Source: Candidatus Kerfeldbacteria bacterium CG08_land_8_20_14_0_20_40_16 (GTDB lineage: Bacteria > Patescibacteriota > Patescibacteriia > UM-FILTER-42-10). From it: 61,409 nucleotides of DNA. The position numbers were made by a program, and so were the translations under genes. The stretch is from contig PEXU01000049.1 in NCBI GenBank assembly GCA_002774635.1, forward strand, positions 1-61,409, given 5' to 3'. Shown here piece by piece: positions 2,020-38,677 of this stretch. Numbering within the stretch: position 1 is the first letter of the stretch; every line of letters starts with the position of its first letter. The notes below the pieces were generated by a model that made no database searches, was not told where the DNA came from, and worked only from the letters and a program-made list of their open reading frames with translations.

Positions 2020-2330
2020 GTTATTGGTGCACTATGAGGAACGGGATAGCGATTTCCGCGTCTCTCCCCTCGGCTTCGCTCGGGGTCCTTGTCCTGGGCA
2101 GCCTGCCCGACATGCCGTCATGGCAGGCGGGCGCCAAATGCTCCTTATGGTCGCATTCGTCGGCGTTCGTCTGCATCCCGCTTTCGCGGGATTTGTCTCG
2201 CTTCTGCCCGTTCGAATCCCTCTCTGGAATCTTAAAAGCGGTAAACAAAAATATCCTGGTTTCCCAGAATATCTTTGTCGTGGTATGTTTATTTGACCAA
2301 ATCCGAACCTATTTTGTCCGTCTGCCGTAG
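2020..2330. other. GC-rich hairpin-dense block, unassigned (candidate structured RNA or decayed tRNA-derived DNA)
   Basis: Hand count 38/60 G+C for 2101-2160, against AT-rich flanks. Several stable hairpins: cctgcccg...caggcggg 2102-2131 and atcccgctttcgcgggat 2175-2192. The 13-mer GTTCGAATCCCTC at 2208-2220 is identical to the T-arm of the tRNA-Lys at 4186-4262. The three overlapping ORFs there look like artefacts. Confidence 0.4.
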
Positions 2331-2381
2331 CTTTAGCGAAGGCAGGAAAGAAATTTTTAATTCTTTTGTTTTTTTAAATGG

Positions 2382-2420
2382 GCGGGGCGGAAGGGGGGTC
2401 TGGGGGGAATTCCGCCCCGC
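2382..2420. repeat. perfect 11-bp GC hairpin
   Basis: gcggggcggaa (2382-2392) pairs with ttccgccccgc (2410-2420). The loop is 17 nt and G-rich. Confidence 0.85.
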
Positions 2421-2470
2421 AAAGAATCAGAAATTTTCCTGAAAATAAGTTCGGGCTTTTAGGAGAAGGC

Positions 2471-2557
2471 CGTACCAATCAGAAGTGGGCGATTTTTCCG
2501 CCAAAATTTGGCGCGAATTTTCCAGTAAAATCAGAGCTTTACCCGACTTAATGAGGC
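2471..2557. repeat. left copy of 87-bp inverted repeat flanking the serine recombinase gene
   Basis: Reverse complement of 4106-4192. One mismatch in the first 54 nt and 7 in the last 33 by my alignment. Begins with CGTACCA, which is the 3' end of tRNA-Lys. Confidence 0.85.
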
Positions 2558-2636: not shown

Positions 2637-2730
2637 GCTTCAAAATTTCCTTAGCAAAAAAAGCGATAATTCCTTTTTGCCTGTTCGTCTACGAAAGGCC
2701 AAAAGCGATTTACTATTAACACTAAAACCT

Positions 2731-4227
2731 ATGAACAAATTCTTTATCTATACCAGAAAATCAACTGATGATGAAGACCGGCAAGTTTTAAGCATTGAAG
2801 CACAAATTGCCGAACTTAGGGAGTTTGCCAAAAAAGAGAGTTTGGAAATAATTGACGAACTGATTGAATCCAAAACAGCTAAATATCCAGGCAGACCGAT
2901 ATTCAATGAAATGCTTTTAAAAATTGAAAATGGTGAGGCTGATGGAATAATTTCATGGAATCCTGATCGTTTGGCCAGAAACGCGGTTGACGGTGGTCAA
3001 ATTATAAACCTGGTCGATAAAGGCAAGTTGAAATCATTAAAATTCCCTACTTACTGGTTTGAACCGTCAAGCCAGGGTTTATTTATGCTGCAAATCGCTT
3101 TTGGCCAGGCTAAATATTACATTGATAATTTAAGCGAAAACGTAAAGAGAGGTATCAGGCAAAAATTAAGACGAGGTGAATGGCCTGGCATGGCGCCACT
3201 TGGTTATCTTAATGATTTAAAAACCCGTACCATTATAGTTGATAAAGAAAAAGCCCTAATTGTTGTTAAACTGTTCAAAGCCTACGCAAGTGGCAAATAT
3301 AGTTTTGAGGGTCTTTCTAAACTGGCTTTTTCTTGGAGTATAAAAACTAGAAAAACTAAAAAGGAATTATCGCTTTCGTTTATTCAAAGAATGCTGCAGA
3401 ATAAATTTTATCTTGGATTATTCTTACACAAAGGCGAAATCTATGAAGGCAAGCACGAGCCACTGATAGACAAAGCCACTTTTGACGCGGTTAAAAGAAT
3501 TATGAGCCAAAGAGGCAAACCAAGGAAAATTAAGACGCTATTAAATTTTCCATTCAGAGGTTTATTTACCTGCGGCGAGTGTGGCAGAACTATAACTGCT
3601 GAAAAACACACTAAAAAATCCGGACTGGTTTTTAAATATTATCGCTGTACCAAAAAGAACACCAATTGTTCGCAAAAATATCTTTCGGAAAATAATCTGG
3701 TAAAACAGGTGGATAAGATAATATCAAAAGTGGCTTTGTCTGATGATTGGTCTACTAAAATGCTTAAGCAAGTGAAAAAGTGGGAACGAGAGAAAGACCA
3801 ATCATCTGCCCTTGCGCTTAAAGGTTTAAATGAAGAATTGGAAAAATTAGAAACAAAACTTTCTAAACTGCTTGATGCGCATTTAAATGGCATTCTTGAG
3901 ATACAAGAATATCAAAACAAAAAAGCAGAACTTATGGAAAAGAAAGTCGCTTTAAAACAAAAGATTGCCCATTTGGGCAAGAAGGGCAATCAGTGGCTCG
4001 AACCATTGAAAAACTGGATATATGAAGCAAGTAACGCTAATAAAATACTTTTTGAAGGAAATTTTGAAGCAAAAGCCGAACTTTTAAAAAAGATTGGCTC
4101 GAACCGCCTCATTAAGTCGGACAAAGCCCTTATTTATTTGGAAAATTCGCGCCAAATTTTGGCGGAAAAATCGCCCACTTCCGATTGGTACGCCGTGAGG
4201 GATTCGAACCCCCGACCATCTGCTTAA
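2731..4227 (+). CDS. large serine recombinase (phage-integrase/transposase type)
   Basis: MNKFFIYTRKSTDDEDRQVLSIEAQ resolvase catalytic N-terminus. Central recombinase domain. Zn-ribbon CGECGR...YYRCTKKNTNC. Coiled-coil C-terminus. ATG at 2731 preferred over the TTG at 2677. The last 35 nt run antisense into tRNA-Lys. Confidence 0.9.
   Translation: MNKFFIYTRKSTDDEDRQVLSIEAQIAELREFAKKESLEIIDELIESKTAKYPGRPIFNEMLLKIENGEADGIISWNPDRLARNAVDGGQIINLVDKGKLKSLKFPTYWFEPSSQGLFMLQIAFGQAKYYIDNLSENVKRGIRQKLRRGEWPGMAPLGYLNDLKTRTIIVDKEKALIVVKLFKAYASGKYSFEGLSKLAFSWSIKTRKTKKELSLSFIQRMLQNKFYLGLFLHKGEIYEGKHEPLIDKATFDAVKRIMSQRGKPRKIKTLLNFPFRGLFTCGECGRTITAEKHTKKSGLVFKYYRCTKKNTNCSQKYLSENNLVKQVDKIISKVALSDDWSTKMLKQVKKWEREKDQSSALALKGLNEELEKLETKLSKLLDAHLNGILEIQEYQNKKAELMEKKVALKQKIAHLGKKGNQWLEPLKNWIYEASNANKILFEGNFEAKAELLKKIGSNRLIKSDKALIYLENSRQILAEKSPTSDWYAVRDSNPRPSA
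4106..4192. repeat. right copy of 87-bp inverted repeat (inside recombinase 3' coding region, overlaps tRNA-Lys 3' end)
   Basis: See the left copy at 2471-2557. Positions 4186-4192 are the CCA-acceptor end of tRNA-Lys. Confidence 0.85.
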
Positions 4228-4262
4228 AAGGCAGTTGCTCTACCTGGCTGAGCTAACGGCGC
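4186..4262 (-). tRNA. tRNA-Lys(UUU)
   Basis: Hand fold: GCGCCGT TA GCTC AGCCAGGTA GAGC A ACTGC CTTTTAA GCAGA TGGTC GGGGG TTCGAAT CCCTC ACGGCGT ACCA. Cloverleaf is intact and CCA is encoded. Confidence 0.9.
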
Positions 4263-4320: not shown

Positions 4321-4385
4321 TCCAGTAACCGTTAGCGAAGCCACTGGCTGCCTGTCCCGCTGAATAGCGGGAAGCTAACGGCGCA
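4321..4385 (-). pseudogene. 5' fragment of tRNA-Lys interrupted by a GC hairpin module
   Basis: Minus strand reads GCGCCGTTAGCT (identical to tRNA-Lys nt 1-12), then TCCCGCTATTCAGCGGGACAGG, then CAGCCAGTGG (compare D-loop CAGCCAGGTA), and then diverges. Confidence 0.5.
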
Positions 4386-33345: not shown

Positions 33346-33445
33346 TTTTTTGTGCTTTTGTCAAGAATAGGAACACCCCAATGCTAAGCATTAGGGCTTG
33401 TTTTATTATTTAAAATGTAGATAACAGCATGTCCTGCACGCCGTA

Positions 33446-33463
33446 GTCCCGTGGACGCGGGAC
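33446..33463. repeat. GC hairpin gtcccgtg gac gcgggac preceded by GTAG
   Basis: The 16-nt core tcccgYggacgcggga matches 26867-26882 at 15 of 16 positions. Lies in the convergent rpmB/MscS spacer. Confidence 0.75.
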
Positions 33464-33540
33464 GAAGGCATGTCAACCTGAACACTTGCTTCGAAAGTAC
33501 AGAGGATTAAGGAAATCCTTTTCTTAAAAGGATTTTTGTT

Positions 33541-37389: not shown

Positions 37390-37605
37390 ATGGCGGAGGA
37401 AACGATGAGTAAAGTTAAAGAAATAAAATGGCCGCAAAAATTAATTCTATCTTGTGGCTGTTGTAACAGATCAACCCGCTGGCTTTCAGTGGATGGAAAA
37501 TGTTTTGATTGCACCAAAGAGACGACAAAAGGAAAAAGAGTAATTATTGTCACGGCCATCGATAATTTCAAAGGTGCTAATGATTTGAGTGACGAGGAAG
37601 ATTAA
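37390..37605 (+). CDS. small CxxC...CxxC zinc-ribbon protein with acidic tail
   Basis: 71 aa with SCGCCNR...CFDC. Has its own candidate promoter and terminator. Confidence 0.45.
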   Translation: MAEETMSKVKEIKWPQKLILSCGCCNRSTRWLSVDGKCFDCTKETTKGKRVIIVTAIDNFKGANDLSDEED

Positions 37606-37623
37606 CTTTCTTTTTGGTTCAAA

Positions 37624-37651
37624 AAACCACTCCTTGGGGTGGTTTATTTTT
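37624..37651 (+). terminator. rho-independent terminator
   Basis: aaccac...gtggtt stem followed by tattttttt. Confidence 0.6.
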
Positions 37652-37737
37652 TTATCAATAGGTTGCCTTAAAATTACTCTCCAAAACTAGTGGCTTAGGA
37701 CTTTATAACCATTTATTTTATAGTCTTGGGTCGGGGT

Positions 37738-38128
37738 TGGTCGGGGATACTGGACCCCGTACCACTTTCACTTCGTTCAAGTGTACGGGGCAGGCTTGTC
37801 CCACTTTAGCGGGATGCCGCCTTCTTTGTATTTTCTCATTAAGGTGGCGGCAAACCGGCGGCCTTCCCGCTTCGCGGGACAGGCACGCACCCTTCTCACA
37901 TCTGGTCGGGGATGCCGGACTTGAACCGGCGGCCTCATGCACCCCATGCATGCGCGCTAGCCAACTGCGCCAATCCCCGGACCAGATGTGAGAATGTACT
38001 AAAGGCATCTTACAGTAGCGCCTTTACCCGCCGAATCCGCTAAACGGCGGAGTAGGCGGGCCATGCATGCGCGCTAGCCCCGCCTGCAATGCCTGGCACT
38101 GGCGGGCAGGCAACTGCGCCAATCCCCG
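37738..38128 (-). pseudogene. tRNA-Pro-derived outer copy split by four insertions (D-loop, anticodon loop, after the anticodon stem, T-loop). Could be a decayed gene or a multi-intron precursor.
   Basis: After removing the inserts, the 5' 36 nt are identical to the inner tRNA-Pro. The 3' pieces are GGGTGCGTG, AGGCCGCCGGTT and GTCCAGTATCCCCGACCA, which differ from the inner copy at 3 positions in total. Confidence 0.5.
37903..37979 (-). tRNA. tRNA-Pro(GGG)
   Basis: Hand fold: CGGGGAT TG GCGC AGTTGGCTA GCGC G CATGC ATGGGGT GCATG AGGCC GCCGG TTCAAGT CCGGC ATCCCCG ACCA. Confidence 0.9.
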
Positions 38129-38269
38129 ACGTTCATAATATATAGTAAAACCGGGATCTAGACAAATGAAAAAGTTTATAACAAGATCAATTTCTTTTCA
38201 GAAGTATCCGAGTGTTTCAAAACTCGCATAATAAATGCCGGCAAAACTTGCCGGCTGATTTTTTAACTC

Positions 38270-38677
38270 TTATTCCCGTCTCAACCAACTGATTGCTTCT
38301 TTCTGATTGATAAAATCATTTACTTTTTTCTTTCCGGCTAAAGTAAATAAACTCTTTGCTATCGATACATGAAAGTGACTGGTACCAGCGATAGCGATTT
38401 TATTAATTCTATTATGATGCAATAAATTCACGTAGATCCCTCTTGCTTTTGAAGAAGGGGGAACTTTGAGTGTTTTTAAGGACGTTAGGTCAAGTAAAAC
38501 ATTTACAGTTTTAGAAGGGTTCTGATTAAAAATATTTTCCACGGCGCTCGTGATCAGCTTAGCCACAAGGACACTTTCTTCTTTATCGGAAGATTCATTA
38601 AATATAGTTAAATTAAGTATTCCGTTTTCATCCCAAAACAGTTTAAAGGTTTTCCGGATCTCTTCTTCAGATTTCAT
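38270..38677 (-). CDS. hypothetical protein, possibly STAS/SpoIIAA-like fold
   Basis: 135-aa ORF. Only weak resemblance by eye. Confidence 0.4.
   Translation of the reverse strand: MKSEEEIRKTFKLFWDENGILNLTIFNESSDKEESVLVAKLITSAVENIFNQNPSKTVNVLLDLTSLKTLKVPPSSKARGIYVNLLHHNRINKIAIAGTSHFHVSIAKSLFTLAGKKKVNDFINQKEAISWLRRE

Follow-up and report, generated by a model that had tools for sequence, protein, structure and literature searches.

How a complete tRNA gene comes to lie inside the anticodon loop of another, and whether the gene around it can still yield a tRNA, is the question raised by a locus on contig PEXU01000049.1 of Candidatus Kerfeldbacteria bacterium CG08_land_8_20_14_0_20_40_16 (assembly GCA_002774635.1). 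The whole of the analysed stretch, positions 1 to 61,409 of the contig, is referred to here as the window. At 37738-38128, read on the minus strand, an intact tRNA-Pro(GGG) gene is enclosed by a second copy that is interrupted in four places, and a first-pass annotation of the DNA had put forward a nested tRNA gene with multiple "introns", without precedent in bacteria. The evidence assembled here leads to a different answer. The outer copy is in all probability a non-spliced, dispensable remnant colonised by mobile hairpins, and the overall account that we consider likely is that of a dead, split ancestral tRNA-Pro(GGG) around a live copy, colonised by hairpins and partly deleted.

The outer copy consists of five pieces (p1 to p5), separated by inserts of 32, 168, 19 and 97 nucleotides (nt), and all of the pieces lie on the minus strand where they had first been placed, the anatomy in the first-pass annotation being accurate apart from the corrections given below. 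The first (p1, 38111-38128) begins at the ancestral gene start and covers tRNA positions 1-18, comprising the 5' strand of the acceptor stem, the D stem and the first half of the D loop. It is followed within the D loop by a 32-nt CCTG-hairpin module, inserted without target duplication (i1, CCTGCCCGCCAGTGCCAGGCATTGCAGGCGGG, 38079-38110), and then by p2 (38061-38078), which supplies the 3' part of the D loop, the D stem, the 5' strand of the anticodon stem and the loop as far as G35 at 100% identity. With the hairpin removed, p1 and p2 together match the 5' part of the inner gene at 36 of 36 positions, as the first-pass annotation had noted. The 168-nt interruption of the anticodon loop is bounded by stems on both sides: its left boundary is the first base of a hairpin (CCCGCC..CCGC..GCGG..GGCGGG, 38027-38060), which is followed by a second hairpin (TAAAGGC...GCCTTTA, 38000-38026), a 5-nt linker (GTACA, 37995-37999) and the inner tRNA with its arms. 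That the loop is broken by this segment is correct, but joining its two sides does not restore a normal anticodon loop, as ATGG and GGGT together leave one surplus G in comparison with ATGGGGT.

The outer 3' half is more heavily altered. Piece p3 (GGGTGCGTG, 37884-37892), the remainder of the anticodon loop and the 3' strand of the anticodon stem, carries an A>G change and is followed, between positions 43 and 44, by a 19-nt CCTG-hairpin module (i3, CCTGTCCCGCGAAGCGGGA, 37865-37883). Piece p4 (AGGCCGCCGGTT, 37853-37864), identical at 12 of 12 positions, provides the variable loop, the 5' strand of the T stem and T54-T55. Next comes i4 (37756-37852), in which three hairpins stand in place of C56-A58: TGCCGCC..GGCGGCA (37815-37852), TCCCGC-TAAA-GTGGGA (37799-37814) and a hairpin of the CCTG type, CCTG-CCCCGTAC..GTACGGG(G) (37755-37794). 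A hairpin-rich T-loop insert of about 100 nt is therefore present as described, although it is made of three separate hairpins, and of the supposedly precise insertions the one in the D loop is exact whereas the one in the T loop replaces CAA (or CAAG). The last piece (p5, GTCCAGTATCCCCGACCA, 37738-37755; 89% identity) comprises the 3' strand of the T stem with two substitutions, the 3' strand of the acceptor stem and ACCA, and directly past this outer CCA lies a third, short copy of the tRNA 3' acceptor strand (ACCCCGACCC, 37728-37737, minus strand). In all, the outer 3' half has three substitutions, GCATG>GCGTG and CCGGC>CCAGT, of which the latter leaves the T stem with one C.A mismatch and one G.T pair. 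A G/A single-nucleotide polymorphism (SNP) at 37818 disrupts the first stem of i4, and the stem-breaking allele is the one found in most contigs. The repeats at the locus far exceed chance, and the fold of the 391-nt strand has a z-score of -6.7.

The inner tRNA-Pro(GGG), by contrast with the C.A-mismatched outer copy, is by all sequence indications the working gene. Its position (37903-37979, minus strand, CCA encoded) is confirmed by ARAGORN and by a 60.4-bit match to the Rfam tRNA family, and it is intact in all 12 of the population sequences with a GGG-type gene. It is flanked by two arms with perfect 13-nt complementarity. The right arm (CCAGATGTGAGAA, 37893-37905, minus strand) is the encoded CCA with the 10-nt trailer, and its final base is the right boundary of the anticodon insertion; the left arm (TTCTCACATCTGG, 37982-37994, minus strand) is the exact reverse complement of the same CCA and trailer. 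The leader/trailer helix proposed earlier is thus perfect over 13 bp, but it does not stack seamlessly on the acceptor stem, since two nucleotides (T and C) face A73 and produce a bulge or a small internal loop.

Signals that could support removal of the inserts were sought at several levels. A targeted test for bulge-helix-bulge (BHB) motifs, covering either geometry and either cut position with shifts of up to +/-4 nt, found a complete 4-bp central helix at none of the four junctions, with a best total of 7 of 10 pairs, and an unbiased scan returned 12 strict motifs against about 7 in shuffled sequences, none of them at the junctions. An Rfam scan of 37600-38300 at E<=10 found no intron family, including the group I core, and returned only the inner tRNA and chance matches; more broadly, no Rfam family other than tRNA was found for the locus, the 2-kb island or 28 hairpin-bearing loci at either gathering or E<=10 thresholds. 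With introns of 0-400 nt allowed, ARAGORN called only the two plain tRNAs of the window and no intron-containing tRNA. When the outer copy is joined at the boundaries of the first-pass annotation no tRNA is called; omitting one G and moving the T-loop boundaries makes it acceptable to the program, though its T arm is then aberrant, and the best in-silico excision has an 8-nt T loop without the conserved core, in addition to the C.A mismatch and G.T pair in the T stem. Among the scanned open reading frames (ORFs) of the window there is no tRNA-splicing endonuclease or ligase.

The locus also varies in nature. The window was compared with 12 further contigs from independent ENA, JGI and other assemblies, with flanks that are 99.8-100% identical (compared contigs carry L-numbers as labels, L001-L010, L171 and L172 having the tRNA-Pro locus and L207, L238 and others being viral). 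In 9 of these 13 sequences (L001, L003-L009 and L172) exactly 149 nt are gone (37980-38128, minus strand), namely p1, i1, p2 and the 81 nt preceding the inner tRNA, a segment with the direct repeat CGGGGATTGGCGCAGTTG at its borders; what these sequences retain is the intact tRNA together with its 10-nt trailer and the hairpin-bearing outer 3' half. The long allele is found in the window, L002 and L010. The outer 5' half of the proposed nested tRNA is accordingly dispensable in most of the population. While the difference between the alleles is directly observed, the short one would represent a deletion between the two identical 5' halves, a direction which is favoured because one deletion between repeats of 18-36 nt would explain the pair far more simply than any path leading from the short allele to the long one. 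At a neighbouring SNP each state is found with either allele, and the haplotypes do not polarise long against short. The remaining sequence, L171 (JGI 3300014060, Ga0119967_10003894), carries, some 190-270 nt from the contig end, the 5' part of a tRNA-Pro(CGG) gene preceded by a promoter-like region of its own; this 5' part is fused within the variable loop (AGGCCGCCGG) to the 3' part of the window's tRNA-Pro, its trailer and the outer 3' half. This contig shows that the species has a tRNA-Pro(CGG) gene with 33 nt in common with the GGG gene, and is either a true recombinant or an assembly chimera.

A sister species, Candidatus Kerfeldbacteria CG_4_10_14_0_8_um_filter_42_10, in which the locus was found by way of the upstream 135-aa gene (orthologue 70% identical), has one plain tRNA-Pro(GGG) directly after the conserved upstream sequence GTTTTACTATATATTATGAGCGT. 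The stretch GTTTTACTATATATTATGArCGT is common to the window and the sister, where a 27/28-nt match leads into the plain gene, and nothing at the sister locus resembles the outer pieces or the inserts. The outer 5' half therefore occupies the ancestral gene start and the nesting is derived; likewise, as GCATG is kept in the sister species, it is the ancestral form and the GCGTG of the outer copy is derived. The closest related genome thus has a single plain tRNA-Pro(GGG) here, which is the comparative pattern that the first-pass annotation had itself named as speaking against a functional nested gene. Synteny based on the neighbouring ATPase gene was also followed in GTDB genomes, where the closest contig ends within the gene and more distant genomes are not syntenic. 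Elsewhere in the sister species (L011, 3733-3767) an AT-rich spacer contains CCCCGCC-AACG-GCGGGA and TCCCGCC-AT-GGCGGGA, tandem GC hairpins whose stems are of the same type as in the window, and the hairpin habit is therefore older than the split of the two species.

The inserts have relatives, both in the window and beyond it. The i1 and i3 modules and the third hairpin of i4 are alike in having a 5' CCTG followed by a GC-rich stem, and five such units are present in the window, starting at 38110, 37883 and 37794 on the minus strand and at 4351 and 2102 on the plus strand. CCTG is the commonest 4-mer before GC-rich perfect hairpins of the window (4 of 59, against about 0.23 expected), where the i3-type sequence CCTGTCCCGC-loop-GCGGGA has two copies against none expected and the pattern TCCCGC-N3-8-GCGGGA has four against 0.01. 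A BLAST search of the locus against the window recovered insert copies only as 12-mers, one of which led to a tRNA-Lys fragment. As regards orientation, between about 2 and 11 kb the plus strand has a positive GC skew, which turns negative just past dnaB and stays so from 11 to 61 kb, and the CCTG strand is the locally G-rich strand for five of five CCTG-hairpin modules, including the one antisense to its tRNA-Lys fragment; a preferred orientation with respect to replication would agree with this, in a sample of five that is confounded with gene orientation.

One member of this family is polymorphic for presence and absence. The 30-nt i1-type module CCTGCCCGACATGCCGTCATGGCAGGCGGG (CCTGCCCG-ACATGCCGTCATG-GCAGGCGGG; 2102-2131, plus strand) has the i1 termini and separates nt 1 from nt 2 of a decayed tRNA-Lys copy. 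Eight sequences have it, and five have a clean empty site, in which GGGCAG is followed directly by CGCC. At most 1 nt of identity flanks the insertion on either side, and slippage is therefore unlikely as the cause of the polymorphism. A near-identical sequence is found in unrelated DNA: CCTGCCCGCCAGTGCCAGGCGATGGCAGGCGGG, which matches i1 at 31 of 33 positions, occurs in viral contigs L207, L224 (twice) and L238, and a close variant in viral contigs L250, L277 and L301, while in L238 the module sits exactly within the loop of another module that is itself intact 14 times. Other matches in the scan of viral contigs with the i1 termini were mostly GC-rich and at chance level. Viral contigs from IMG/VR with a GC content of about 50% (L238 at 278-420, L207 at 1600-1740, L224, L210, L239 and L312) hold many 33-36-nt modules that run from CCTGCCCG to GCAGGCGGG, often with ctctgtg.. 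on one flank and tctgtg.. on the other; a distance of 83 nt separates two L207 modules that differ from each other but have similar flanks. No i1-like module was found in the GenBank phage or plasmid collections, and no transposase was recognised by Pfam in the ORFs beside the viral-contig copies.

Taken together with the insertion sites at the tRNA-Pro locus, these observations support the alternative, also raised in the first-pass annotation, of a decayed duplicate riddled by mobile hairpin modules, for these constitute a family, one member of which is cleanly polymorphic for presence and absence, and a near-identical module exists elsewhere. The inserts are thus best regarded as small hairpin modules that are mobile, or are at any rate gained and lost with precision, and that have amassed in DNA which folds strongly and is free of constraint. 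Of the four points of insertion in the tRNA-Pro copy three are loop positions, as is the one in L238, which would fit with insertion into folded single strands. The bare i3-type pattern is not generally linked to tRNA genes, given that in metagenomes 2 of 126 among the matches listed were near a tRNA and most lay on unrelated contigs. In low-GC contigs (L116, L145, L154, L062, L098, L088 and others) the i3-type hairpin is usually preceded by AG and stands directly between other short GC hairpins, for example between ..CCCCTTAGnCTTAAGGGGAgAG and gGtTGGgG.., which suggests composite hairpin clusters in many uncultured low-GC genomes. A further 35-nt GC-rich hairpin unit (CTGCACGCCGTAGTCCCGTGGACGCGGGACGAAG) in the L28/MscS intergenic region of the window (33424-33476) is flanked by GCATGTC as a 7-nt direct repeat; it may be a module with a target duplication, and 10 population contigs show no variation in it.

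With these elements in hand, the history of the locus can be set out as four steps. In the first, one event at the DNA level would have placed a hairpin-bounded segment with a full tRNA copy between G35 and G36. This segment is now 168 bp long, its core is a 102-bp unit of left arm, tRNA and right arm, and the left arm is such an inverted copy of the CCA and trailer as strand-switch (palindrome-extending) copying would give. In the second, the live copy would be transcribed from the old promoter through the dead 5' half and released by ordinary 5' and 3' end processing, with no splicing. The third step, whose traces are visible, is the unconstrained decay of the dead halves, as in the T-stem substitutions, the loss of the T-loop core and the SNP that breaks an inserted stem, along with their acquisition of CCTG and GC-rich hairpin modules, mostly at loop positions and without target duplication. 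In the fourth, for which the polymorphism is evident, recombination or slippage between the identical 5' halves would have removed 149 bp and brought the live tRNA back beside its promoter, in what is now the commoner allele.

Within this account the first step is the part held most loosely. We favour nesting by a single insertion of a self-copy, tentatively and at somewhat less than even confidence, as the most economical route because two duplications would each need the same anticodon breakpoint as well as exact gene ends. Further local inverted copies are present, GCTAACGG beside the tRNA-Lys fragment and ACTTGAAC, a copy of the T-loop octamer, in i4; the three, counting the left arm, suggest strand-switch copying in hairpin-prone regions. 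Two simpler mechanisms were considered and set aside. A simple tandem duplication fails on the trailer GATGTGAGAA, which is not repeated past the outer 3' half, and on the 81-nt leader, which is unrelated to the native upstream sequence; a 2-nt crossover by a serine recombinase fails on the junctions, which have only one G in common.

Several observations weigh against the account as a whole. No allele with an uninterrupted outer gene was seen and the origin step was not observed, nor is there a second copy of the 168-nt or the 102-nt unit in the window or the viral contigs, or a hairpin-moving transposase among the scanned ORFs of the window. The outer 5' half shows 0 changes in 36 positions and the 3' half 3 in 39, a disparity with an estimated chance of about 6% if the two are of equal age, and the halves may have come from separate events, or the 5' half may have been kept identical by gene conversion. 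The direction from long to short is argued only from mechanistic parsimony. Finally, a paired stem change in a hairpin at 2176-2191, in the tRNA-Lys region, hints at some constraint on hairpin shape. There TCCCGC-TTTC-GCGGGA contrasts with TTCCGC-TCCT-GCGGAA in the other haplotype, so that both sides of the stem and the loop are changed in DNA that would be expected to be junk; module replacement, correction of one arm by the other and selection on shape are all possible explanations.

Another explanation, which enlarges on the second alternative of the first-pass annotation, is that the unit is a tRNA-carrying miniature mobile element, with 13-bp inverted arms and possibly two leader hairpins, which was moved by the machinery of the CCTG modules into the anticodon loop of its parent gene and so rescued the function that it destroyed. 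Such an element would suit the boundaries of the 168-nt segment, each of which is the first or last base of a stem, and the other inserts, which are also delimited by hairpins and in three of four cases occupy loop positions of the cloverleaf; small modules are demonstrably gained and lost with precision, and one is able to land in the loop of another hairpin. The arms themselves, however, are unlike the CCTG modules, and as a miniature inverted-repeat transposable element the unit falls short in most respects, for although the 13-bp arms exist, the left arm lies inside the insertion, 66 nt from its left boundary, the target duplication is at most 1 nt, and the unit has no other copy in the window and none in the viral contigs, with no empty-site allele seen. 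Neither the inner tRNA nor its leader was found in the viral contigs, and the identity of the inner tRNA with the outer 5' half marks it as a local and not an imported copy. We consider this explanation unlikely. The same low probability attaches to a broader proposition, that the CCTG modules are an active, previously undescribed family of ultra-small mobile elements (19-40 nt) in bacteria of the candidate phyla radiation (CPR) and in unrelated viral contigs that insert, with no duplication of the target, into the unpaired loops which single-stranded nucleic acid forms on folding, be they in cloverleaves of tRNA genes or in other modules, and that this same mechanism carried a hairpin-bounded tRNA copy into the anticodon loop of its parent as a self-rescuing insertion.

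The outer pieces could also be scars of site-specific integration at the anticodon loop of tRNA-Pro, the elements having been lost and remnants of their attachment (att) sites left around a restored gene. Partial tRNA duplications of this kind, left by integrative elements at tRNA genes, were reportedly described by Williams in 2002. The likeness is in an intact tRNA followed by direct repeats of its 3' part from the anticodon loop onwards (p3 to p5), to which the third short 3'-end copy ACCCCGACCC may be added, and in the behaviour of tRNA genes as rearrangement hot spots. An orphan 71-aa ORF that the sister species does not have lies just downstream, L171 changes exactly within the tRNA to another upstream region and to the 5' part of a tRNA-Pro(CGG), and the window's other tRNA abuts a large serine recombinase gene flanked by copies of the tRNA 3' end. 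Yet integrases normally displace the 3' part of a tRNA gene only, whereas here the 5' half is duplicated too; the displaced 3' half is a mere 10 nt away from the intact gene, and between that gene and the 5' half there are 81 nt of hairpins. There is no element body and no integrase within 30 kb, and L171 may be an assembly chimera across the 33 nt common to the two tRNA-Pro genes. Integration scars are to our minds an improbable origin, on a par with the miniature element.

Much less survives of the interpretation with which the locus was first presented, in which the outer copy is a functional multi-intron (or permuted or split) tRNA with four inserts removed as in archaea of the Thermoproteales. 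Multi-intron tRNA genes with BHB introns are known in that group, and these introns are themselves regarded as transposable between tRNAs (Fujishima et al., cited in PMC10714607). The resemblance lies in several inserts at non-canonical positions (D loop, anticodon loop, 43/44 and T loop); the pieces remain able to pair as acceptor, D and anticodon stems, and some in-silico excisions are called tRNA-Pro by ARAGORN. The locus nonetheless fails every testable defining feature of the archaeal genes, since it has no BHB at any junction, a bacterial host, a damaged and dispensable outer copy and a complete, redundant tRNA inside. Damage to the outer copy, including a mismatched T stem and a T loop without C56-A58, the lack of splicing or group I signals and the absence of the outer 5' half from most of the population, in addition to the sister species with no trace of it, together make a functional multi-intron tRNA very unlikely and leave that proposal largely refuted. 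Least credible of all is an assembly artefact arising from the 18-36-nt repeats in data that come entirely from metagenome assemblies, one contig of which (L171) may be chimeric, as both alleles recur with collinear flanks and identical junctions in several independent assemblies made by different pipelines, including MEGAHIT k141 contigs, for which the k-mer length far exceeds that of the repeats.

The dead, split tRNA-Pro has a parallel in the tRNA-Lys region of the window. The intact tRNA-Lys, the second tRNA of the window, is at 4186-4262, and about 60 nt upstream of it is a decayed tRNA-Lys 5' fragment (GCGCCGTTAGCT, a module, then CAGCCAGTGG...; 4322-4383, minus strand), within which lies the second i3-type module (CCTGTCCCGC-TGAATA-GCGGGA, 4351-4372, plus strand). 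A decayed inverted tRNA-Lys copy (GCGCCaAATGCTC .. ATGGTCG .. GTTCGAATCCCTC .. CGTACCA; 2131-2478, plus strand), the one next to the polymorphic 30-nt module, is broken by hairpin-rich insertions and a deletion. Between the two is a large serine recombinase gene with Resolvase, Recombinase and Zn_ribbon_recom domains (2677-4227, plus strand), the only recombinase in the window. It is flanked by inverted repeats of about 105-120 bp (2471-2593, plus, and 4087-4192, minus; 91% identical over 87 nt), which consist of the last 7 nt of tRNA-Lys and its downstream sequence, and the 3' end of the ORF extends, in antisense, across the right repeat and into the intact tRNA-Lys. The arrangement may be an invertible unit or one like an insertion sequence (IS), or else the tRNA-Lys locus may have undergone an inverted duplication; 10 population contigs showed no inversion. 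The adjoining stretch 2020-2300, compared with L165, L167, L170, L183 and L188, falls into two haplotypes that differ at about a dozen sites in 250 nt (about 5%, against about 0.1-0.2% elsewhere), of which L164 and L169 look like recombinants. A G-rich hairpin (GGGCGGGGCGGAAGGGGGGTCTGGGGGGAATTCCGCCCCGC) follows at 2376-2422, and five short population contigs end just before it, at the equivalents of 2277-2365, which suggests a sequencing or assembly problem or structural heterogeneity.

The wider setting is that of a bacterial chromosome. The window has a GC content of about 38%, its closest genome is Candidatus Kerfeldbacteria (Patescibacteria/CPR), and its ORFs include a long ribosomal-protein cluster as well as dnaB, recR and ruvX and the serine recombinase, identified by Pfam, while gatCA, ndk and NAD-ligase are pre-computed Pfam labels on loci of the same species. 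The neighbours of the tRNA-Pro locus are a SpoIIAA-like gene, the orphan 71-aa ORF and a P-type ATPase gene. A promoter-like site found by consensus scan (TTGTCT-17-TATATT, 38137-38165, minus strand) lies directly 5' of the outer 5' end, and a bidirectional terminator-like hairpin (37624-37645, both strands) closes the tRNA unit and also serves the convergent orphan ORF. As these two features bracket the locus, the whole nested structure is probably a single transcription unit, to judge from its sequence. The orphan ORF (37390-37605, plus strand), between the tRNA locus and the ATPase gene, encodes 71 aa with two CxxC pairs, has no homologues outside the window's species, and in the sister species its place is occupied by a response-regulator gene.

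Parallels with better-known systems exist for the hairpin modules, which in size, composition, polymorphism and nesting resemble repetitive extragenic palindromes (REP), Rickettsia elements and fungal GC clusters. REP sequences and REPINs carry a GTAG tetranucleotide and are associated with RAYT transposases of the IS200/IS605-type Y1 class, and IS200/IS605 elements transpose as single strands. The modules share with them a conserved 5' tetranucleotide before a short, GC-rich, imperfect palindrome in several copies, insertion without target duplication and folded single-stranded DNA as a plausible target; they differ in having CCTG instead of GTAG and in being single units of 19-40 nt, and no RAYT or Y1 (HUH) transposase was found among the scanned ORFs of the window or beside the viral copies. 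Rickettsia palindromic elements are palindromic mobile elements comparable to the CCTG modules. Group I introns, for their part, occur in the anticodon loops of bacterial tRNA genes, namely cyanobacterial tRNA-Leu(UAA) and tRNA-fMet. They have in common with the present locus an insertion in the anticodon loop of a bacterial tRNA gene, but here 77 nt of the 168-nt insert are a tRNA, there is no group I core and the interrupted gene is not needed. Among the GC clusters of yeast mitochondria GC42 duplicates an AG target (PMC4478555), and in Neurospora mitochondria GC-rich palindromes are reported to flank tRNA genes (Yin et al. 1981, in the reference list of PMC4478555). The organelle clusters and the Rickettsia elements are like the modules in being GC-rich hairpins of about 30-40 nt in AT-rich genomes, in presence/absence within populations, in clustering, nesting and merging, and in an association with tRNA genes; the modules for their part lie in a CPR chromosome, are unrelated in sequence and show no target duplication.

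In the literature no report was found of hairpin-interrupted or nested tRNA genes in CPR bacteria, and the present locus does not supply the first bacterial multi-intron or nested tRNA. For annotation, a tempting false positive is thereby eliminated, and comparable loci in CPR genomes should not be labelled in that way. As tRNA biology the locus is ordinary, and its interest, which is moderate, lies in the hairpin family and in the segregating alleles. In natural groundwater populations these alleles capture the clearing of a redundant split tRNA gene through deletion across its own repeats, and the gain or loss of a 30-nt GC-rich hairpin with base-pair precision. Such hairpins can break assemblies and mislead RNA-gene finders in reduced genomes, and the family to which they belong is a lead toward a very small class of bacterial mobile DNA.

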